From Octopus vulgaris (Eukaryota): DNA of 64,000 bases. The notes under the pieces are model-generated. The model was not told the origin of the DNA and made no database searches. It saw nothing but the letters and a program-made list of their open reading frames with translations. Below, piece by piece: positions 3,906 to 55,475 of this stretch. The position numbers and the translations under genes are program-made. Positions within the stretch are counted from its first letter, which is position 1; every line of letters starts with the position of its first letter. Where the stretch lies: contig OX597833.1 in the NCBI GenBank assembly GCA_951406725.2, positions 27,652,001-27,716,000 on the forward strand, read 5' to 3'.

Positions 3906-5118
3906 TTAGATAAAACTTAGATATGTTTCGACCAGAGATTGGTCCAGGCCATGTCTAACTTAATAGCACCACCTGATAGGATTATTCGAATCAAGTCAAG
4001 TTTTGTTCAAGTAGTGAGTTCTTGTTGGGTGAGTTGTATCCAGTTTTGTTCAAGTAGTGAGTTCTTGTTGGGTGAGTTGTATCCAATTATGGGTGGCTTG
4101 TCTGGTATTCTTTGAAGGAATCTATCCAGACTCTGTTTGAAGTTGATGGGATCCTTTTCCTCTTTGATCTCCCTCGGGACAATGTTAAATAGGGCAGGGC
4201 CTGTTGAGGAAAAGAAATTATGTTGCAGTGTACATGTATGTTGTGATCTTGAATTTGGCAGGGGACGTATAGCCCGTGGTCCAAGTCTCGGATGAACCTT
4301 GAAGCTAATGTTTAGGTCGTTTGGGCAAAGTTGGCGGTATATTTTCCACATCGTACAAATGATGTACCGCTCACGGCGACGCTGGAGGGAGTAAGGTTTC
4401 AAGGCTTTAAGGCGATCCCAATAGTCGAGAGCAGCCATGCCTTCAATTTGTTTAGTGAGAGCCCTCTGGGGTGACTCAATTCTGGAGATGTTTTGTCTTG
4501 TGTGAGGAGACCACAGTGGGCAGCAGTATTCAAGGTGTGGCCGTACAAAGGATGAAAAAAGTGGTATGATGACACCTTGTTCTCTGGACCGGAAAGTTCT
4601 TAAGATCCAGGAACTCATCCTACGAGCTGTATCGACCTTCTTGTTGATGTGTGCACTCCAACTGAGATCGTCATCAACAATTACACCCAGGTCTCTGATA
4701 TTGTTAGAGGCTGTGAGCGGTTCCCCTGAAGGAAGAGAGTATGGTTGTTTTAGTGAGGAATTTCTTCCAAAATGCATCAGCTCAAATTTTCCCTCATTCA
4801 GTTGCATTTTGTTTCTGTCTGCCCATTGACTCACAGCATATAGGTCAGACTGGAGTTGAGTTCGGTCTGCTTCTTCATTGACGATTTGCTGGAGCTTAGT
4901 GTCATCAGCGAATATTTTCACTTTGCAGTGATGTACGACACTGGAAAGGTCGTTTACATAAATTATGAAGAGTAGCGGACCCAAAACAGTTCCCTGGGGA
5001 ACACCGCTGGTGACTTTTGCTGGGTTTGAGTGGACTCCATCAACTACAACATGTTGTGTTCTATTCGCTAGGAAATACTGAATCCAGTGTAGAACTTTTC
5101 CACGGATTCCAACATTTG

Positions 5119-5120
<2 letters not shown>
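3901..5120 (-). mobile_element. CR1/Jockey-group LINE, 3' fragment (RT C-terminus)
   Basis: ORF 4007-4984 GPLLFIIYVNDL...KIFADDTKL...IRDLGVIVDDDLSWSAHI...SFVRPHLEYC; SGVPQGTVLG upstream; 3' tail of tandem (aaacttagat) units. Confidence 0.93.
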
Positions 5121-6448: not shown

Positions 6449-7032
6449 TAGATTATGTTCTTTCCACAGATGCCTATCAAGCCTACCAAAAGCACTACTA
6501 ACCCTGCTGATTCTGTACGAAATTTCATCATCAAGACCAACAGTGCTCAAGGTACTTCCTAAATAAATAAATCTAGGTACAATCTCCAACCTTTGACCAT
6601 TCACAGTTATAAAAGGTTCCACATACATCTATGAAGGAGCGAGGTAGTACGTTATAACAGTTTTTTTTTAGATTAACTGTTAGACCCAATGCTGCACATG
6701 CTGCAGAAATCACATTCACCATGTGCTGCATAACTTTCTGAGAATGTGCCAACAGGTCACAATCATCTGCATGCAGAAACTCAACAAGGCGAGAAAGCAG
6801 AACTTTCGTTTTGGCACAGAGTCTTTTGAGATTGAACAGTTTTCCTGTTGTCCTATATCTTATACAGGCCCCTCGAGGGCAATCTTTAAAAGCTATTTGA
6901 AAGACTATTGCGAAATATATAGGAAACAGTGTAGGAGCAGGAATATCACCTGGCTTTACACCATTTTCTACAGAAATTGGATCTGATAAGGTACCTCCAA
7001 CATTAACTCTCATTTCCATCTTGTCATGAAAT

Positions 7033-7080
<48 letters not shown>

Positions 7081-7087
7081 GATACTT

Positions 7088-20274: not shown

Positions 20275-21100
20275 CTTACCTATCTTGGCTCTACCGTCAC
20301 CTACAACCTATCCCTTGACGCTGAGCTCAATATACGCATTGGCAAGGCAGCTGCTGCGATGGCCCAACTCTCCAAACGGGTATGGGACAACAATAAGCTG
20401 ACCAAGACTACGAAAATGAAGATCTACCAGGCATGAGTACTTAGCACTCTACTGTATGGAAGTGAAACTTGGACGCTATACACACGCCAAGAGCGTCGCC
20501 TAAACATCTTTCATCTGCGCTGCCTCCGGAAAATCCTCCGCATCAATTGGCAGAATCATATCCCCTACAAAGATGTCCTCAAGCAAGCAGGAATACCAAG
20601 CATGTTTGCACTCCTCACACAAAGACGCATGAGATGGCTTGGGCATGTTAGCCGTATGAAAGATGGCAGAATCCCCAAGGACATACTCTACGGAGAGCTT
20701 GCTAGGGGTAGTAGGTCTGTGGGTAGACCGTTCTTACGTTACAAGGATGTTTGCAAAAGGGACATGAAGGCCTGCAACATCAATATTAGCGGTTGGGAAG
20801 CAATTGCCAGCAACCGTGGAGATTGGCGACGTACCGTAAAAGAGGGAATACAAAGGAGTGACAGAGAGGAGAAATGGAAAGACAAGAAAAGACGTCAACA
20901 AGAAACTATGACATTACAACCAGCCAGGAACAGTCTTCGCTACATTTGCGGTACCTGCCAGAGGGAGTGTTTGTCCAGGATAGGACTACACAGCCACAGC
21001 AGGAAGTGTATCAGGACATGAAATGTAAAAGCCGGACTGGACTATTTTATGCGCAACTCCATTGTCTCCCGAGACAAAAAGGATGCCAACAACAACAACA
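20274..21100 (+). mobile_element. RTE-clade LINE 3' fragment with a single C-terminal C2H2-like finger and (CAA)n tail
   Basis: YLGSTVT...LLYGSETW...RWLGHVSRMKDGRIPKDILYGEL...[23 protein letters not shown]. Confidence 0.92.
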
Positions 21101-22098: not shown

Positions 22099-22300
22099 TG
22101 TTTGTCCCCCCCACCACCATCGCTTGACAACCGATGTTGATGTGTTCACCTCCACGTAACTTAGCGGTTCGGCCAAAGATACCGATAAGAACAAGTACTA
22201 GGCTTACAATGAATAAGTCCTGCGGTCGATTTGTTCGATTAAAGGCGGTGCTCCATCATGGCCGTAGTCAAATGACTGAAACAAGTAAAAGAATAAAAGA
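21915..22300 (+). mobile_element. SINE family B, full length
   Basis: Colinear with other copies. Confidence 0.88.
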
Positions 22301-22327
22301 ATATATACACAGACATGTATGCATATA

Positions 22328-22435
<108 letters not shown>

Positions 22436-22436
22436 A

Positions 22437-22665
22437 AAGTTAATCCAAACAAGAAAACACAGAAAAAAAGAGAGAAAAAAACACAGCAACGCAGGACGTG
22501 GAACAATTAAAGTATTATTGACGCTCAGGAAAGAAGTGAAGGAGGGTTTAACGTTTCGAGCGGAGCTCTTCGTCGGAAACAAGGAGAAGGAAAGATCCCA
22601 AGGAGGGAAGACAGAGGGGACAATATTTGAGCTGGTGGTGCTTAAGAGATCACATGTTGAGATCA
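22437..22665 (-). mobile_element. Solo pseudo-LTR-like fragment of the Neptune PLE family, in (TA)n
   Basis: Reverse complement matches ~3708-3868 (gggatcttt...gtttccgacgaagagctccgctcgaaacgt...cctgagcg...gtttggattaa). Confidence 0.82.
22546..22580 (-). ncRNA. Minimal type I hammerhead ribozyme variant
   Basis: GUUU-CCGACGA-A-GAGC(UCC)GCUC-GAAA-CG-UU-AAAC; stems I and II fully paired. Confidence 0.7.
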
Positions 22666-22729
22666 CATATATATATATATATAATATAATATAAAATCTG
22701 TTCAGTCTGTCTGTGTGTGTATCTTCTAG

Positions 22730-24540
22730 GATCTTGAAGTTGACCGTCTTTAGTTCAGCGCAGGAAAAGTTAACCGTCATCAGTTCACTGCATGGAAAGG
22801 TCACCGCCATCAGTTCACCGCGGGGAAAGTTAAACGTCATCACTTCACCACAAGAAAAGTCCACCATCATCAGTTCACCGCAGGGAAAGTTTACCGTCAT
22901 CAGTTCACTACAGGGAAAGTTCACCGTCATCAGTTCACTGCAGGGAAAGTTCACCGACATCAATACAACGCAGGGGAAGTTCACCGTCATCAATCCACCG
23001 CAGGAGAAGATCTCTGTCATCAGTTCACGGCAGGGAAACTTAACCATCATCAGTTCACCGCAGGGAAATTTCACCATCTTCAACTCACCGTAGGGTAAGT
23101 TCACCGACATCAATTCAACGTAGAGGAAGTTCACCGTCATTAGTTCACCGCAGGGCAAGTTAACCGTCAGTATTTCCCCGCAGAGAAAGTTCACCGTCAT
23201 CAATTCACAGCAGGGGAAGGTCACCGTCATAAGTTCACTGCAGGGGTAGTTCAACTTCATCAGGTCAGCAGAGGGAAAATTTACCGTCATCAGTTCACCA
23301 CAGGGAACATTCACCATCTAGTTTCCAATCATTTTATCGGTCATGTTTGAGTCAGCATGTCCAGCAAAGTTAAATGCCATCAATTCACTACGGAAAGTTT
23401 ACTGTTGTCAAATCATCGTGGGATGAGTTCACCGTCATCAGTTCACCGTAGGGTAACTTCACAGATATCAATTCAACGCAGAAGTTCACTTTCATCAAAT
23501 CACAGCAGGGGAAGTTCACCGCCACCAGTTCACCGCAGGGAAAGTTAAACGTCATCACTTCACCACAGGGAAAGTTCCGCGTCATCAATTCACCGCAGAG
23601 GAAGTTCACCGTCATCAGTTTACCGCAGGGAAAGTTTACCGCCAGCAATTCACCACAGGTATAGTTCACCGTCATTAGTTCACCACAGGGAAATTTCACC
23701 GCCATCAGTTCGCCACAGGGAAAGTTTACCCTCATCATTTCACTGCAGTGGAAGTTCACCGTCATCACTTCACCGCAGGAAAAGTTCAACGCCATCAGTT
23801 CCATCAAGGAACTTCACCGGCATCAAATCATCGCAGGGGAAGTTCACCGTCATCAGTTCACAGCATGGGTATTTCACTGTCATCACTTCACCGCACGGAA
23901 AGTTCAGCGTCATCATTTCATCGCTGGGGAAGTCTATCGTCATCAGTTCACTGCAGGGAAAGTTTACCATCATGACTTCAATCAAGGAATATTCACCGGC
24001 ATTAAATCACCTCAGTGGACGTTCACCGTCATCAGTTCACCGCAGTAAAGGTTCACCTCATCAGTTCAGCGCAGGGGAAGCTCACCCGCATCAAATCACC
24101 GCAGGGGAAGTTCAAGACATTAATTCACTGCAGGGATAGTTCACCGTCATCAGTTCACCGCAGGGAAATTCAGCGTCATCGATTCACCGCAGGAAAAGTT
24201 CACCGTTATCAGTTCACCGCACGAAAAGTTCACCGTCAGCAGTTCATCGCTGGGGAAGTCCACCGTCATCAGTTCACTACAGGAAAAGTTCACCGTCATC
24301 AAATCACCGCAAAGGAAATTCACACTCATCTGTTCACCGTCATAAATTTGCCGCAAGGAAAGTTCACCGTCATCAGTTCACCGCTGGGGAAGTTCACCGT
24401 CATCATTTCACCGCTGGGGAAGTTCACCGTCATCATTACGCCACAGGGAAAATTCACCGTCATCAGTTCATCGCAGGCAAAGTCCACCGTCATCATTTCC
24501 TCGCAGGGAAAGTTAACCACTATCAATCAATTCACCGTTT
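22730..24540. repeat. 30-bp minisatellite array, roughly 55-60 units, consensus CAGTTCACCGCAGGGAAAGTTCACCGTCAT
   Basis: Two blocks (~22730-23318 and ~23365-24540); each unit has two AGTTCACCG half-repeats. Confidence 0.95.
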
Positions 24541-24627
24541 TTTGTTTTGTTTTTTAATTAAATAGGTTTTTGTTTTCAATAAAACAGTTTTCAAATATTG
24601 ATAATGAGATACTATAAGTATATTTTC

Positions 24628-25705: not shown

Positions 25706-26491
<786 letters not shown>

Positions 26492-27054: not shown

Positions 27055-28290
27055 TATTGCCATGCATCAGTAAGCACTTGGTTATAAATACTCAGCTACA
27101 CATCCGCATCCCTTCTGATTGCTCCTCAGTCCGCTTGTAGAAGTTTATGTTGTCAAATAAGTGCAATGGAGTGGGATTGGCTGGCTTGGTTTTAATATGC
27201 CGGAAATTAAAGTTGCAGAGCATCATATCGTGGTCTGAGAGGAGAGTTTTTTTCAACTGAAATACTGTGAACGGAGCTAGAGTGTTTGATTAATATTAGA
27301 TCCAAGATCGTTTTATTCTGTCTTGTTTGTTCGAGCACTAGCTGAGTCAGGAAAATTTATCCATTAGATTAAAGAGTAATTCTGCTGCTTTGTCTGGTGT
27401 AGAGCATTTGCCTGACTTCAGAGTATTTGTGGACCAGTTTATATAAGGGAGGTTAAAATCACCTATCACTAGTATGTTTCCGGAGTTGTAATTTTGAAGG
27501 AAGGACTTGATTTTGTTGAGGCATTCTTCAAAGCACATTAGAGGTGTTTGAGAAGGCCTGTAAAGACCAACAATGATTATGTCTTTGGACTGGTTGAATA
27601 GTGATATGGATTCACAGTATCCATTGGAAAATATATCCTTGGCATCAACTGAAAAAGAGTCATGGAGAAAGATAGCTGTTCCCCCTTTATTTCGGTCTGT
27701 GCGATCTGCACGGATGATGGTGAAATCTTTTATTTTCACCTCGGCATCCATGTGAGTGCTGCTAAAGTGAATTTCAGTAAGGATAAAGAAGGGGAAGCAA
27801 TATGCCGTTTCGGCAAGCTAACTCTCTATGTATGGAATCTTCCATTTTTGGGCAGTGAGTGATGGGTTGACACCACGTACATTTAACAGGAATGTCGAGG
27901 CAAGGGTAGGTTGATGTTTGTATTGTTCTAAGTGCTATGTTGTTCGGAGGTAGCAGTGAGGGTAGTTTTTGTATGGAGTTGTGCGTGTGTGATTTTCTAG
28001 TTGGTGGTGAGTGGGTGATCCTTGTGTTTTGCATAAATGGTTGCAAATAGCTCGTTGGATCTCCTGGCTCAGGTCGGCCTTCATATTTTCGAGATAAGTT
28101 AGAAAAAAAGAGTTGCCTCTTTGGTTTGCCACTTGGTCAGATGATACATTGTTCATGTTTAAGTTATTTGGCGTTATTGCTTTCCCATAGATCTGTCTTC
28201 GTTGTTTGGTTGTAGGAGGTGAAGTGTAGTTGTATTTTGTTTTTGTTGTTGCTGTTGTAGGTCTCCTCTGTTGCTGTTTATATTTATTTT
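27055..28290 (-). mobile_element. CR1/Jockey-group LINE fragment: ORF1 end and APE endonuclease
   Basis: LLNVRG...LTE...IIRADRTDRNKGGTAIF...VGLYRP...LVIGDFNLPYINW...SDHD; frameshifts. Confidence 0.88.
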
Positions 28291-29847: not shown

Positions 29848-31205
29848 CTTTGAATCTTAAGAAGGTCTTGCAGAATTTTATTGTCCCAGTTATCGTGATC
29901 ACTTGTGTATGAACAACGGATTAGCGCTCTCTCCCCCAAGAATCCAAGGACAGCCATACCTCACTTCAGAAAGGTTTGTATGTATCCTGTTGCTCCAATG
30001 ATAATGGGTATGAACTGAAAGTGTATCTTGGATACTGGGTTTGAAAACTCATTATTAATAGTCCGTAGATGTACTCTTTCTCTTATACTTTTCGAACCAC
30101 ATTGGTGTCCAGTGGGAAGCTGATTTCCACAACTGAACATATCTTTTCCTTGTGGTCCCACAGGACAATATCTGGCTGGTTTTGTTTTACCTTGGTGGCT
30201 GTTTTAACTTTTAAGTTCCACCAATATTCTTTTGAGCCATCGGTCTCAATATAGTCAATTTCGTCTGCAGGTGTTTTCTTTTTCATCATCCTGCTCCAGA
30301 ACGTTCTGGCCACTGCGTCAATCCTCATGGGAAGATATCTGGAAGACACTCTAACAGTTGACAATAATGTGGTTCATGTCTTCAGTCCTGGACTACTACA
30401 ACCTACATTTGTTGTCTATCAACGTCTTCTGCCTTTTATGCTGTACATATACTTGGTGGGGATCTCTTGGTCTTGAACTGCATGGATGTAGCCTTCAAAG
30501 TAGCATGTTATAAACATGTCAAAGCTTCATGTCAAGCTTTTGACAGGATCAGTCCCTTCTATGGTTCGTATTTTTCTTCTGTCTTCTCGGTGAACCTGTT
30601 CATGTTCTGTCTTATCAGAGGACCGGTCCATTTTTTTAATGTTCTTCTTCTGATAAATAGCTTTTACCAATGCCCCTTGGGATGATATCTGTATCCGCTC
30701 TAATTTTATACCTCTCCTAAAGTTCATTAGCTATCTTAATTATGATGCTGATTTGATGGTCGCAAACTTGGGAAAGACAGTTACTGGTCTCTATCCTCTG
30801 CTGCAGATATTTCAGTGTCACAATATGTACTTCATATGACAACAATACAAATACACGATCACCATCCTTGCGTGTGAAGATCTAGCTTATCTACATCTCC
30901 ATTGATGTTGAGGTTCCCTGTAATATTTAGTGGCTTCCGAGTTCGGACATTTGTCTCATTGAGTTCTTAAAATGACCAGTTCAGAAGGGCAAACGTAGGT
31001 GTGAGGACATTTGATGGAACAGCAAAGCTGTTGTGGGCAATATGCGTGTTGTAAGCTAAGAGTTCTGATGGCCATATTCCTTTTTAGGTTTTCAGAGGAA
31101 AGCACTTTTCCATATTTTATTGTCGAAAATGCACATTTAGACTCACCAAATGTCATTCCAATACCTGTAGAAATTTTGGGTAATGAGATGCAATTGATTT
31201 TTAAT
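29848..31205 (-). mobile_element. R4/Dong-like restriction-endonuclease LINE fragment flanked by (TATG)n on both sides
   Basis: SSRYLPMRIDAVA...EYWWNLKVKT...NQPDIVLWD...VVEISFPLD...FIPIIIGATG; upstream IGMTFGESKCA. Confidence 0.85.
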
Positions 31206-31364
31206 GTACGTATGTATGTATGTATGTATGTATGTATGTATGTATGTATGTATGTATGTATGTATGTATGTATGTATGTATGTATGTATGTATGTATGCA
31301 TGCATACATGCATATATGTGTCTGTCTGTCTATATGTATGAGTGTATATATATATATATATATT

Positions 31365-31535
31365 ATAATAAAGGGTAAAATCATTAATAATTTTACCAGG
31401 TAAATAAAAACCCCTATAGGTAAATTTTACAAAATATATTATAATTATATACATAACTATAACAAGGGGTTGGCTTTACGCCTCACCACGCACTGTAGAA
31501 ATAGACGCGAAATGCTCTGTTACCACCTTAAAATT
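31365..31535. mobile_element. PLE-like non-coding fragment: inverted tail plus tail-less body
   Basis: 31368-31395 is a direct repeat of ~32510-32537; ~31440-31535 is an inverted repeat of ~32531-32615. Confidence 0.6.
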
Positions 31536-31544
31536 CTCCCAGAA

Positions 31545-31584
<40 letters not shown>

Positions 31585-32240
31585 GCAGGGTGTGTGTGTG
31601 TGTGTGTTTGTACGCGAATGTAATTTATGCACATCCACAAATTAACACGCATGTCGCTCCAGTTCTAGGAGGACATTCATTACGACCCTGTATTTTCGTC
31701 AAATTATTTTCCCCGAAGACACCAATGAATAACGGTAAAAATAAATTTTCAACCATAACTTAACAATTTTCACGGCAGAGAAATCCACCATTGTTTACAA
31801 ACATGAGTTAAGTCCCCTTCTAGCGACGGGTAAGTTTTTGTTGACATTTGTTTTTTTTTCCATCGAGGAAAAAAATGTTTTGTCGATATACGGGCAACAC
31901 ACACATACACACAACACACACGTACATACGTACACCCATTGCATACATGATTTTTGTACGCATGCATGTGCATGTGTGTGTGTGACTGAAGCCATTTACA
32001 CATAAATACATACAACCCCTCTCTCTCTTTTCATCTGTCAATCATTTACCAAAAAGACGAAAATAAAAAAACTGTTATCTATCGCTCTGTCTCTCTTCAC
32101 ACACACATTAACGAAACAACTTCTCATACACACTACACTTTCTGTGTTGCACACCCCATCGAACACGCACACACACACAGACAGACACGAACATGTATGC
32201 GTACAAAAAACATGTATGCAATAGATGAACTTTTCGATTA

Positions 32241-32309
32241 ACCGCGTGCAAGATCTTGTTTCAAGCTTAAAGTAAAGAAATATTACCTACTGCTCTCATC
32301 AGCGACGGT
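32241..32309 (-). ncRNA. Type I hammerhead ribozyme fold with one core mutation
   Basis: ACCGUCG-CUGAUGA-GAGC(25 nt)GCUU-GAAA-CAAGAUCUUG-CA-CGCGGU; stem I with one bulge, palindromic stem III, U16.1 replaced by C. Confidence 0.7.
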
Positions 32310-32775
32310 ATTCCATAGTATAAATTTACGAGTATCTCAAAATATGCATGCGAGCCGCGACGTCGCATAACCAATATCCATCCACACTCGTAGAAATATA
32401 CTACAAAGTAGAATTCACATCTTTCTTTTCTACCCTCGTGTAGTGTGTCAAGATCAAGGCCGCAGTTAATAGTTTCGATCAGGCAGTAAATTTTTCAAAT
32501 ATTATTTATAATAAAAGGTAAAATCATTAATAATTTTAAGGTGGTAATAGGGCATTTGGCGTCTATTTCTACAGGCGTAAAGCAAATCCTTTGTTATAAT
32601 TATGTATGTAATCATAAAATATTTAATATATATACTTTATTATTAAGCATTTTACTCTACCTCCAGCATTCGTGTATTATTTTTTCCATTTTCTTTCACA
32701 TTTATGTGTTTACTCTGGTGTGTATATGTGTGTGCATGTGTAACTTTATCTCTTTCTCTCTTTCTCTCTCCCTCC

Positions 32776-32847
<72 letters not shown>

Positions 32848-32914
32848 ATCCCTGTTTATACATGTCTGCATTTTTTGTTTTTCTGTAAATTTCAGCTATA
32901 TATATATATATATA

Positions 32915-33060
32915 TTGTTATATGTGGAGATGGTCATATTTGTTGCCGATTAACCACACGCACAACATACTCGTCCTTCACTTCAACTTTATTATTATTC
33001 TTATTTTAGTGTCCTTTGTCTGAAGTCTTTCGCGTCACATCTTGTGACCTCTTCAGCGAT
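32915..33060 (-). mobile_element. PLE-like fragment related to 15072-15393 with hammerhead-like motif (33018-33060)
   Basis: Shares attgttatat...atggtcatatt with 15133-15160; minus CUGAAGA-G-GUCAC(AAGAU)GUGAC-GC-GAAA-GACUUC. Confidence 0.62.
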
Positions 33061-34148
33061 TCTCCATTCCTAGCTCACTTCAGTTGTTTACAGCAATACT
33101 TAGAAGGAAGGTTTGTAGCGTGTGATCCTCGCACTGACCAGCTCAGAGTAAACTGAGCAGAGTATCTGCATCAAATTTTGCCAGAAGCTTGACGATATCA
33201 CCTCAGAGCCCTACGCAAATTTTCAGAAAGTGTATTGAGAGGAGTGTATGAGCCCTGTACAAGTGTACGAGTAGTTCAACCGTTTCCAAGATGGCTGAAA
33301 AATTCCGATAGTAACAAACGTTTTGGGAGATCCGCAACCAGCAGAACTGAGAAAACATCGCAGATGTGCGTGCAGCAGTAAGTGAAATTCGTCGAATCCC
33401 CATCCGTGAGTTATCAGAGGATGTGCAGATTAGTTACGGTTCAGTTCAGTCTATTATAACTGAAGATTTGGGTATGGGACGCGTGTCTGTCAAGTTTGTG
33501 CCAAAACTGCTTTCAATTAACCAGATAGGCACTCAGGTTTTAGTCGCACAAGATCTCTTTATGTCGTGAACGACGAAAACTTTTTGAAAACGGTCATAAC
33601 GAGTGATGGACCGTGCGTCGATGGTTATGATCCCGATACAAAGACCCCAACCACTCCGAAATCGAAGAAAGCACGAGTGAGTCGAAGTATGTGAAGACAG
33701 TTGACCATGTTCTTCAGCTACAAGGGGATTGTTCATGATGAATATGCTCCAACTGGTCAGACAGTAAACAAGGAGAACTACTGTGACGTTTTGCGGTGTT
33801 TGTGGGATGCTATTCATCGGGAAAGGCCACAATTGCACGCGTCCGGTAAGTGTCAATTGCACCATGACAAGATATCTGCCCATTCAGCGCAGCTTGTGCA
33901 GCAGTTTTTCGCTAGGCACAGCACTGGACCCAGGTCCGATAGCCACCGTATTCCCCAGATCTCGCCCCTTGCGATGTTTCCCTCTTTCCAAAAATCAAAT
34001 GCAACGAGGCAGATGCTGATTATCCGAGGAAACTAGTTCCATCAATGGAAACAGCGCTAGATTAAATGTGTGGCTTCCGAAGGGGACTACGTGTTGTAGA
34101 TTTGTTTTTATAACACCAGTCCGGATATTTATTGATCAAGCCGCGCAT
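33061..34148 (+). mobile_element. mariner transposon, decayed
   Basis: ICIKFCQKL...IRELSEDVQISYGSVQSIITEDLGMGRVSVKFVPKLLS...KGIVHDEYAPTGQTVNKENY...LHHD...AHSA; degenerate right terminus near 34140. Confidence 0.9.
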
Positions 34149-34453
34149 ACACACACGCGCGCGCACACACACACATAAAAATTGCATGTCCTTCTTAGAC
34201 GGAGGAAGAAAATTTAGCTAAAGGCCAGCGAAACTTGTACGCAATTGTTCCTTTGTCTGAACAAGTTTATAAAGATCAGAGTTTTCCATGAGCATCTAAA
34301 ATATTTTTGAGAAATTAATGATTAATGTCTTGAAATTATGTCTGTTTTCTTTAAAAGTTACCAGCTGATATATAAAACAAGAAGTTTGGATTTTGTCATT
34401 CAGTACATCATCCTTTTATTTATCTAAATCCATTCTTGGCATATTTACTCTTA

Positions 34454-34516
<63 letters not shown>

Positions 34517-35597
34517 TGTGTATTTGTCTGTGTATTTATATGTGTGTGTATGCATGTATGTATTATATAACACACATACACATCCATATACATAGACATA
34601 TATTTGCATATATACACCTAAATACATATGTACAAATATATACACATATACACGCACACACACGTATAAATATGTATATGCATATAAATATATATATATA
34701 TATATATGCATATAAACGCACATATACATACGTACAAATATGCACACACATTCACAGGCATGCGTATGCACATACATGCACAAGCACACACACGCACACA
34801 CGTTCATATATATTTACATACACCATGCATGCAAACATACGAGCGCGCGCGCACACACATACACACACACACACACACACACAGATATAAACAAAATTAC
34901 AGCTGATAAAATCTTAACAGCCGTTACTACCATCAGATTCTCAAATCCTTGTGATATTGCACGGATTTGAGTGTCTCCCCCGCTGTTATTTATTACTAAT
35001 CAACTCACTAATTCGATAGCCAGTTAATCTCTACACATGTTTTTGTTAAGCTGAACTAAGTGTAGGAAGCTGAGGAAAAGGAGGATGAAGGATGCTTTAA
35101 TTTTTAATGATAGCTAATTTCACTCAGAACTGCAATAAGACTTGAATATGTCTTAAGTGTTAGATAAATAAGCTGTAATTAAAAGAGCACCACAGTGCCT
35201 ACCACCATCACCCTCATTACAGTTCCAGACATCACCACTACCAACATCACAGTGTTGATTATCCCTCCAGCCACCACATTAGTTCTAGCTACCAGCACTA
35301 TAATGCTAGCTACTAACGCTATAGAACAAGCTACCATCGCTATAGTGCTAGCTACCACATGTTAGGTATGATCATTACCTCACTATTACCATTATTCCAT
35401 TACTACCACTACAGTGTTAGCAACTACTATACCATAATAGTGCTAATTATCATCACGAAAATCAACTCCGCCACCACAATTGTGATATTGTTAGCTAACG
35501 CTATCACCAACTCCACCAATATCACAGTTCTTGCTAACCCTAACACCACCATAATTGCGCTAGCTTCAACCACGACCGCTTTCTGATCATGCCGAGT

Positions 35598-53114: not shown

Positions 53115-55475
53115 GACCAAAATAGAGCTTTTTTTCAAAGAGATGAAAGCAGTTGTGCAAAGAAAGAAGTGAACCATGCAGAATACTTGGTGGCGGAAGA
53201 AAGCAGAAGAAATAGAGGCTGCTTCCAATGTTAAGAACACTAAGTTATTATATACTCTCCTTCGTGAGGTGTAGGGGCCATCATGTCCTACTTTGGATCA
53301 TGTGAAGAATAGGGGTAGTGTTTTATTGAGGGAGCATAAAGACATTTTTAAACGATGGGAGGAACACTTCAATGAACTTCTGAATCGATCATCAATTGTT
53401 GATGAAAAAAGTATTGATATAATTCCACAGAATGCACCCATTGAGTGCTTAGATGATACCCCGTCAGTGGGAAAACAAAGTAGTATCAAAGCTGAACAAT
53501 GGCAAAGCACCGGGAGTTGATAGTCTGAATGTAGAACCAGTCAAGTTTGTTGGGGGGACTACTTGCTAGAAATGCTGACAGCAGTAATACAGAAGATATG
53601 GAAAAATGAAGTTATACCAAAATACTGGAAGGATTTAGTCATGGAAGTTGTGTTCAAGGGTAAGGGACAAAAGGATGAATGCAATAACTTTCGTGGTATT
53701 TGCCTGCTTGCTACAGCCAGTAAATTTTTATCACGAATAATGTTGAACTGGCTGCAGATATATGTGATTAATGGGATTCTTCCTGAATCACAGAGTGGAT
53801 TCAGAAATGGTAGGGGTACTGTGTATATGATCTTCTCTGCACGGCAGTTACAGAAAATGTGTGTGGAACAGCAAATAGGACTTTATCAGGTATTCATTGA
53901 TCCTACTTAAGGCTTTTGACTCTGTCAATCGAACTGCCCCGTGGGAGATCTTGAGGAGACTTGGATGCCCGGTAAAGTTTCTTACTATTCTGAAGCAGTT
54001 TCATGATGGCATGGAAGTAAGGATCAACATTGGTGGAAAGGTCTCGGAGCCTATCTCTGTCACGAATGCGGTAAAACAAGGTGACATATTAGCACCTACG
54101 CTCTTCACCCTCTATTTTACTATAGTTTTTCATTTGGCTTTCAAAAGCTCCTATGAAGGCATATATATATCAGATATCGCACAACAGGAAAACTCTTTAA
54201 CATCAGAAGACTGTCAGCTTAGTCAAGGATGTACTCAACTCTTATTAGAGACGTAATCTATGCAAATGATTGTGATATTGTGACTCATACCGAGGAGGAC
54301 ATGCAAAATTTTATGAATGCAATTTCAATGATTTGTGAGGCACTTGTATTAATCTTAAATCTAACCAAAACTGTTGTCATGTTTCAGCCAACACCAAGAA
54401 TGCCATACATAGAACCTGGTATCTTCGTGTATGGAAGAAAGATTGCTGTGGTTTCTAAATTTGTTTAATTAGGGAGCACACTAAACACATCAGCGAATCT
54501 TGATGAAATGTCACTACGCATTCAGAAAGCCAGTTTTGCTTTTGGCAAATTGGAAGACCACCTATGGTCTAGATATGCTATTTACACTGCGACAAAGGTT
54601 AAGTTATACAATACATGTGTCTTAACCTCTTTACTGTATGCTTGCGAAACCTGGACTGTGTATCGTAAGCACTTAAAACTTATGGAACGTTTTCATCAAA
54701 AATATCCCAGAAGGATTTTGGGGATCAGCTGGAAAATGTTTGTGAGTGATGATGAGGTGCTTGAAAGAATGAAATACTTCAGTATTGAAGCTTTGCTATT
54801 GCAGTACAGATTGAGATGGAGTAGACACTTAGTCAGAATGACAGACAACAGAATGCCTAAACAACTTTTTTTACGGAGAATTGGTGACAGGTTAGCCTGC
54901 GTCCCACAAACCAAAGATGAGGTACAAAGGTTGTCTGAAGTCGGGATTGAATAAGATAAATGTTCCAAGTGACAACTGGGAAGATTTAGCGCATTGCCGT
55001 GAAAAATAGAAAAAAGTTGTGTATGAAGGCAAAAATGAATTTCATTGGAAGAGAATGGAGCACACAAAGATCAAAAGAAAGATGCGAAAAAGAGACAGTA
55101 ATGATGTTCTAACAAGCATTAATGAACGTGATAATTTTACGTGTGATGAATGTGGAAAGATTTGTCTTAGTAAGGCTGAGCTAAAGAGCCGTATGAAATC
55201 AGACATTGCACAACCACACTTTGATTATAGATTGACAGATGATTTCGAATGCATACTCTGTCATAAAGTATGCAGATCAAAAAGTGGCTTGAAAGGCATA
55301 GTAAAGTTCATGGAGCTGTAAACTAAACAATCACCAAGTTTTCTTGCACAAATTGTCAAAAAAGCATGCAAGTCTTTGGCAGTCCTCAAAAGCCATATTC
55401 GTATAGCTCATCGATGATATTCTGGGGCATAAAGAAATCAGGCAATGGATCTTCTCCAAATCGAGTTGGCAACCA
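53115..55475 (+). mobile_element. RTE-clade LINE, decayed, with three C-terminal C2H2 fingers
   Basis: RWEEHFNELLN...CNNFRGICLL...LPESQSGFRNGRGT...KAFDSVNR...VKQGDILAPTLF...YANDC...LLYACETW; CDECGK, CILCHK, CTNCQK finger starts. Confidence 0.93.

Follow-up and report, generated by a model that had tools for sequence, protein, structure and literature searches.

Hammerhead-bearing Penelope-like elements (PLEs), the retrozymes and the PLE origin of the retrozymes are already published. In the metazoan non-LTR retrozymes, for which a Penelope origin has been proposed, a non-coding unit with one type I hammerhead is present in circularly permuted copies (PMC7229834; 10.64898/2026.07.22.740005), and the proportion of monomers among the families ranges from 0 to 1 (Li, Clavereau and Pollet 2026, 10.64898/2026.07.22.740005). 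PLEs and their non-autonomous derivatives such as MRC1 form partial tandems, are truncated at the 5' end, stand beside an adjacent inverted 5'-truncated copy, carry a tail at one end and are biased towards TA microsatellites (Craig et al. 2021, PMC8557442). Their hammerheads have a type I fold with a long helix II and a palindromic helix III, and regulated cleavage, by way of the palindrome or with the help of a protein, has been proposed for them (Cervera and de la Pena 2014, PMC4209133). In Anolis Poseidon the hammerhead is protein-assisted and the start sites of reverse transcription lie downstream of the cleavage site; the PLE protein cuts both strands of AT-rich DNA, and two internal start sites define the tail (Frangieh et al. 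2024, PMC11167929).

The repeat described here, a family with a unit of 517 nt, resembles the retrozymes and the PLEs in the structural features listed above, the PLE hammerheads in fold and helices, and Poseidon in the placement of the presumed reverse transcription starts. On the other hand, its unit is longer than the roughly 300 nt typical of retrozymes (PMC7229834; 10.64898/2026.07.22.740005), no dimer or multimer with two ribozymes was found (the longest run is 704 nt), and the family is old, decayed and known from genomic copies. The tail of about 80 nt exceeds the 30-40 nt described for PLEs (PMC8557442), and, unlike PLEs, the family has no ORF; a comparison with one young PLE family did not yield an autonomous partner with a common 3' end. 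In contrast to the PLE hammerheads described in PMC4209133 and PMC11167929, the ribozyme lies clear of any ORF start. Nor is it a minimal hammerhead, since in the monomer a 3-bp hairpin could arise within the 10-nt stem III insert; the exception is one subfamily with a 4-nt palindrome, whose stem III is of the minimal type. To judge from its copies, the family would act like a non-LTR retrozyme while falling short of the two-unit tandem that serves as a criterion in Li et al. (10.64898/2026.07.22.740005), and we file it as a non-autonomous Penelope-type element. The literature found on octopus hammerheads, cephalopod retrozymes and octopus non-autonomous Penelope elements or SINEs does not describe it; Repbase, Dfam or the supplements of Li et al. 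may contain it. The 517-nt repeat is a new, old family of a known parasite type. It offers an older, sub-dimeric example for the proposed copying of animal hammerhead repeats by Penelope enzymes, and its subfamilies form a natural series with altered but still paired or self-complementary stems I and III, on which the idea of dimer cleavage becomes testable.

We consider it very probable that the locus holds a point-mutated type I hammerhead within a protein-less 517-base repeat, likely inserted in trans by the reverse transcriptase and endonuclease of a PLE, and that this copy, as predicted, does not cleave. The features of the window, the whole 64-kb stretch of Octopus vulgaris DNA that was analysed, are collected in table 1. 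Unit coordinates carry the prefix m (m1-m517); the ribozyme core falls at m216, the cleavage site at m271.

Table 1. Features of the window and their positions in the 517-nt unit.
Feature	Window position	Strand	Remarks
Type I hammerhead motif	32241..32309	minus	m209-m277; sequence, descriptor scan, covariation in 38 copies
Stem I, 5' strand	32309-32303	minus	read from sequence
CUGAUGA box	32302-32296	minus	read from sequence
Extended stem II	32295-32263	minus	read from sequence
GAAA box	32262-32259	minus	read from sequence
Stem III, 10-nt palindrome	32258-32249	minus	read from sequence
C16.1	32248	minus	read from sequence; family triplet GUA changed to GCA (32249-32247); NUH rule broken in window copy
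A17	32247	minus	read from sequence
Stem I, 3' strand	32246-32241	minus	pairs with 32309-32303; one bulged U (1-nt bulge)
Long hairpin just 5' of ribozyme	32316..32403	minus	kept in six of six subfamily groups
TATA-like box	32425..32435	minus	commonest family form in 16 copies; window copy mutated T to G
Segment starting at the supposed second half-motif	32449..32482	minus	complement of stem III and of the stem I 3' strand
Main insertion piece	32228..32545	minus	m486 through the seam to m290; identity to consensus 93%; broken at 32228
Inverted 5'-truncated partner	32533..32624	plus	m346-m448; ends at short fixed 3' end
Foreign interval, 682 nt	31546..32227		replaces m291-m335; microsatellite-rich
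3' piece with tailed fixed end	31356..31545	minus	m336 to m17; runs into TA repeat
Pyrimidine tract ending CAG	31493-31505	minus	m~376-387; kept in 5 of 6 subfamily groups, tract sequence varying
Very young autonomous PLE, fragment with GIY-YIG end	1238-2053	plus	at least 150 matches at 96-100% amino-acid identity
Presumed LINE RT/endonuclease-like open frame	4007-5119	minus	
Presumed LINE RT/endonuclease-like open frame	6573-7085	minus	
Presumed LINE RT/endonuclease-like open frame	20437-21021	plus	
Presumed LINE RT/endonuclease-like open frame	25717-26196	minus	
Presumed LINE RT/endonuclease-like open frame	27347-27817	minus	
Presumed LINE RT/endonuclease-like open frame	54469-54954	plus	
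Long degenerate tandem repeat	22268-24557		repetitive open frames on both strands

The earlier note had read on the minus strand two canonical core boxes and three stems able to pair, with U16.1 as the only altered core base, and all of this holds: 6/6, 4/4 and 3/3 pairs are possible over the three helices (13 of the 13 scored), helix I being open, and the other core bases are intact. A relaxed descriptor, drawn up after the motif had been seen, matches it as the single occurrence in the 64 kb, and 1 of 200 block-shuffled windows matched at similar stringency (9 of 200 at a looser setting). The loop I-loop II tertiary contact and self-cleavage are putative.

The surrounding DNA, which had been thought apparently unique, is in fact repetitive, with at least 48 matches at about 40 genomic places when 40 of 219 candidates were scored. 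The genome searched comprises 2.8 Gb in 227 contigs, and each of the DNA searches scored 40 candidates out of 219-905. A single non-coding unit of 517 nt that closes on itself (circular permutation) accommodates all pieces. In total 81 loci were mapped, with same-place repeats dropped; the ribozyme half served to sample 43 of them, the 3' part 23 and the tail 15. Both L002 and L005 are retained in the counts; they lie on the same contig about 190 kb apart, and their common flanks and private changes point to duplication of a segment more than to two separate insertions. The 34 occurrences of an exact 19-mer fall at 32 loci, 10 of which are among the 40 matched places, and from this overlap the number of ribozyme-bearing copies is put at roughly 130, likely an underestimate; short 3' fragments are commoner (824 candidates). 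Identity to the consensus has a median of 87% and a range of 77-95% in 66 loci, so that the family is about 13% diverged and appears to be old and no longer spreading. Parts of a family copy are present in 20 public runs from 14 studies under six organism labels, none of these runs being listed as RNA. Four runs guessed to be RNA gave 15 contigs, all less than 95% alike to the query copy and without a splice or circle joint, and are silent on expression.

The conservation of the ribozyme was followed in 38 copies that span it, three of which were sampled by a pattern containing core bases. The entire core is intact in 24 copies, each position of the CUGANGA and GAAA boxes is kept in 34-38, A17 in all 38 and U16.1 in 34. 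The 11 invariant core sites have mismatches in 18 of 418 cases and the non-CpG background sites in 1005 of 8861 (base-matched P = 0.00045), and variants common to at least four copies are found at none of the 11 core sites against 52 of the 246 background sites. In the 38-row alignment 86.6% of the stem cells are paired and 11 of 20 pairs have changed on both sides, with a covariation score of 0.268 against at most 0.092 for slid partners; part of this covariation sits at CpG pairs, whose decay looks like compensation (243 of 640 CpG cells are TG/CA), and the copies are related and hence not independent. Stem I differs in sequence between subfamily groups and still pairs. Stem III stays self-complementary in most subfamilies, its inserts comprising two different wobble palindromes, a palindrome of 4 nt and a form that is only partly self-complementary. 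The palindromic stem III of the earlier note is true of the window copy, where the 10 nt form a perfect palindrome, and does not extend to the family in that perfect form: this copy is the only one of the 38 to have it, and G-U wobbles are present in the commonest form (13 of 38). The computed self-duplex of stem III is -14.2 kcal/mol for the window copy and -14.8 kcal/mol for the commonest form. To judge from the alignment, the perfect palindrome of the window copy (1/38) is a decay change, as is C16.1 (2/38). We read these patterns as probable selection on the ribozyme during the active period of the family, with neutral decay later.

The insertion footprint was drawn from 127 pieces at 66 loci. 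Two 3' ends are fixed, one near m448 (49 pieces end at m432-460) and one near m13 (48 at m510-m31), and the remaining 30 pieces end elsewhere; the fixed ends lie about 80 nt apart, which gives the length of the tail. A microsatellite follows 35 of the 49 short ends, 37 of the 48 tailed ends and 2 of the 30 other ends, so TA/TAA runs after fixed ends (72/97) as against other ends (2/30) reveal a bias towards insertion into microsatellites. An inverted partner is joined 5'-to-5' at 46 of the 66 loci and at 7 of the 15 further loci. Among the 24 pairs with both ends intact, 22 combine a short with a tailed end, two are short with short and none is tailed with tailed; the set sampled by the ribozyme half, and not by the ends, contains 10 short-tailed pairs and two others, and the 15 further loci have the same combination in 6 of 7 pairs. 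The 5' ends are ragged through 5' truncation, and no excess of them was found at the predicted start or at the cleavage site (2 and 4, respectively, against 3.7 expected). A possible 5' cluster at m335-354 was unconvincing on the 5'-end histogram. Pieces longer than one unit, which are partial tandems, number 14 of the 127.

The window copy has the same anatomy, its inverted partner and its main piece meeting back to back with a short overlap. The foreign interval beyond the break contains about 200 nt that resemble another repeat (75%). The 3' piece on its far side may be the remainder of this insertion or may have entered a TA run separately. At three other loci (L109, L112 and L127) another short repeat, probably a SINE, abuts or splits the unit.

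A chance occurrence of the motif within unique DNA could be argued from its folding and from Rfam: minimum free energy folding of the window motif is no better than that of shuffles (z = -0.28), stem III is absent from the predicted fold (pair probability 0.01), and among 83 Rfam matches at E<=10 in 30000-35000, mostly microsatellite-driven miRNA models, there is no hammerhead, while the six RF00163 matches among the 73 candidates scored in the genome all belong to families other than the 517-nt unit. The family alignment nevertheless refutes this explanation, as the motif belongs to a multicopy family with U16.1 restored, a conserved core and covarying stems, and the probability left to it is negligible. 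A different question is whether domestication has made the window copy, with its variant NCH core, into a working ribozyme or structured RNA. Its remaining core bases and its scored pairs are intact, its palindrome is perfect, and identical letters are found in runs bearing two organism labels: two runs, each from its own study, have contigs that agree with 32228-32286 at every letter, for which reason C16.1 is not an assembly error, although one of the runs may be the source sample. Against domestication, a divergence of 7% from the consensus is nothing unusual in this family, the copy has a mutated TATA-like box and a break in the unit 13 nt past the motif, and the C16.1 change recurs in one other copy, L005, as expected from decay (T 34, C 2, G 1 and A 1 at this position among the 38 copies). 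Moreover, C16.1 opposite A15.1 violates the NUH rule, under which NCH cleavage sites require inosine at 15.1 (PMC8879150), and the window copy is predicted to be inactive for this reason. Domestication is thus highly improbable. Since the family keeps U16.1, C16.1 is likely a decay mutation that leaves the window copy unable to cleave, and this copy is likely an inert fossil.

The other two explanations concern the origin of the pieces. They could be what is left of the pseudo-LTRs of an autonomous PLE with overlooked ORF-bearing copies; such pseudo-LTRs have type I hammerheads with a palindromic helix III (PMC4209133), the DNA searches scored only part of their candidates, and four copies, none of them with an inverted partner, start close to the seam (m3-14). 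However, copies that cross the seam run on into the unit's own 3' part, the upstream DNA of the four seam-starting copies, read by eye, is unrelated, and the copies have no common flank outside the unit except for one other short repeat. The absence of a nearby ORF, claimed earlier, extends to a PLE ORF at the 81 loci: tblastn with a young PLE protein of the same genome against the 66 and 15 loci with 1.5-kb flanks gave no match, and a scan for PLE motifs gave one match, which is trivial. Remnants of this kind are accordingly improbable. The young PLE itself, of which the window holds a fragment, was rejected as the autonomous partner because it shares no sequence with the 517-nt unit; this comparison covered one young PLE family. 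Another locus, L134, has an 883-aa frame for reverse transcriptase and endonuclease, in tandem with a period of about 6.2 kb, and a relaxed regular expression detected no sense-strand hammerhead core in it. Five motifs of the unit are absent from one supplement file of PMC8557442, in which TA-targeting octopus Naiads are listed. Finally, the repeat could be a SINE-like or viroid-like RNA that entered the genome through a LINE enzyme or in some other way independent of Penelope. LINE-type reverse transcriptase fragments, as we take them to be, occur in the window, and twin priming of the L1 type, which also yields inversions, would be an alternative source of the inverted pairs. Yet neither poly(A) nor a fixed 5' head was seen, and the two asymmetrically used fixed 3' ends, the circular permutation and the TA targeting match PLEs (PMC8557442 and PMC11167929), which makes a LINE route very unlikely.

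The insertion in trans by a PLE would proceed as follows. The 517-nt unit would be transcribed, perhaps from the TATA-like box, and a Penelope protein would bind the unit RNA and cut both strands of a TA run. Reverse transcription could then be primed from the two DNA ends at two internal sites of the RNA and would run short, and the two cDNAs would meet to give an inverted pair. The template is expected to be longer than one unit because copies run across the unit seam; it could be a circle, cut by the ribozyme and re-ligated, or the uncleaved read-through of a rare dimer, the two being about equally probable. No source of an RNA circle was seen, because no locus holds two same-strand ribozymes (0/66, 0/15 and 0/32 exact-pattern loci, with diverged copies covered non-exhaustively), and a tandem partner ribozyme, envisaged in the earlier note, is lacking in the window as at all 81 loci. 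Cleavage was likely regulated, through a palindrome-paired dimer or protein help, and dimer cleavage by the family ribozyme is plausible. Counting against the scheme are the failure to find the autonomous partner, the lack of a two-ribozyme locus, a tail longer than the one described for PLEs and the absence of any accumulation of 5' ends at the cleavage site. The idea that the motif is the relic of a non-coding ribozyme-bearing retroelement family is borne out by the copy number, U16.1 in the family, the covarying stems and the Penelope insertion structure.

A possible second half-motif (GAUC-GAAAC-UA, ~32465-32485) had also been suspected. As a ribozyme half it is ruled out by the missing G8, A9 and stem II, and its equivalent of C3 varies among copies. 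The complementary segment that starts with it lies directly upstream of the TATA-like box, which in turn stands 30 nt before the long hairpin; judged by its sequence only, the box might be a promoter. The hairpin has z values of -2.4 to -4.6 against 200 mononucleotide shuffles per subfamily group. It is conceivable that the segment, by pairing with stem III and with stem I on its 3' strand, acts as a promoter-gated off-switch, so that new transcripts would cleave and the read-through or circular template would be protected, and if true this would explain how the ribozyme is kept without destroying the insertion template. In G1, the group of the window copy, the duplex between segment and ribozyme is calculated at -28.6 kcal/mol and the segment raises the fold cost of the ribozyme from 3.7 to 7.8 kcal/mol; the rise is slight in G1c and G4 and absent in G1b, G2 and G3. 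The duplex is equalled by none of 1000 shuffles in G1 and G1c, by 4 in G2, 15 in G1b, 56 in G3 and 414 in G4; G3 and G4 are the groups in which it does not beat shuffles. Support for the switch is weak or absent in three of the six groups. The upstream complement did not follow the sequence changes in stems I and III and so gains no compensatory support; as a conserved switch it was rejected on this ground and on the lack of support in G3 and G4. We regard the switch as unlikely, and the simpler reading of the complement, an old captured inversion, is the more likely one.

Further observations concern neighbouring sequences and other families. The CAG-ending pyrimidine tract in the 3' piece resembles, by its letters, a splice acceptor. 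PLEs often have an intron in the 5' UTR; an intron across the ribozyme is unsupported here, and no spliced joint was seen. In the run X12, which bears another organism label, the depth over 32305-32359 of the window is about 1500 on the 3' arm of the hairpin against some 20 on the ribozyme, a difference that suggests a related family in that organism with the hairpin kept and a different ribozyme. Three more short hammerheads (L031, L034 and L035) score above the Rfam RF00163 cut-off and belong to other families. A second hammerhead family, unrelated in sequence and with a very long stem II (L032, L033, L036 and L138-L149), likewise ends in TA runs with inverted partners.
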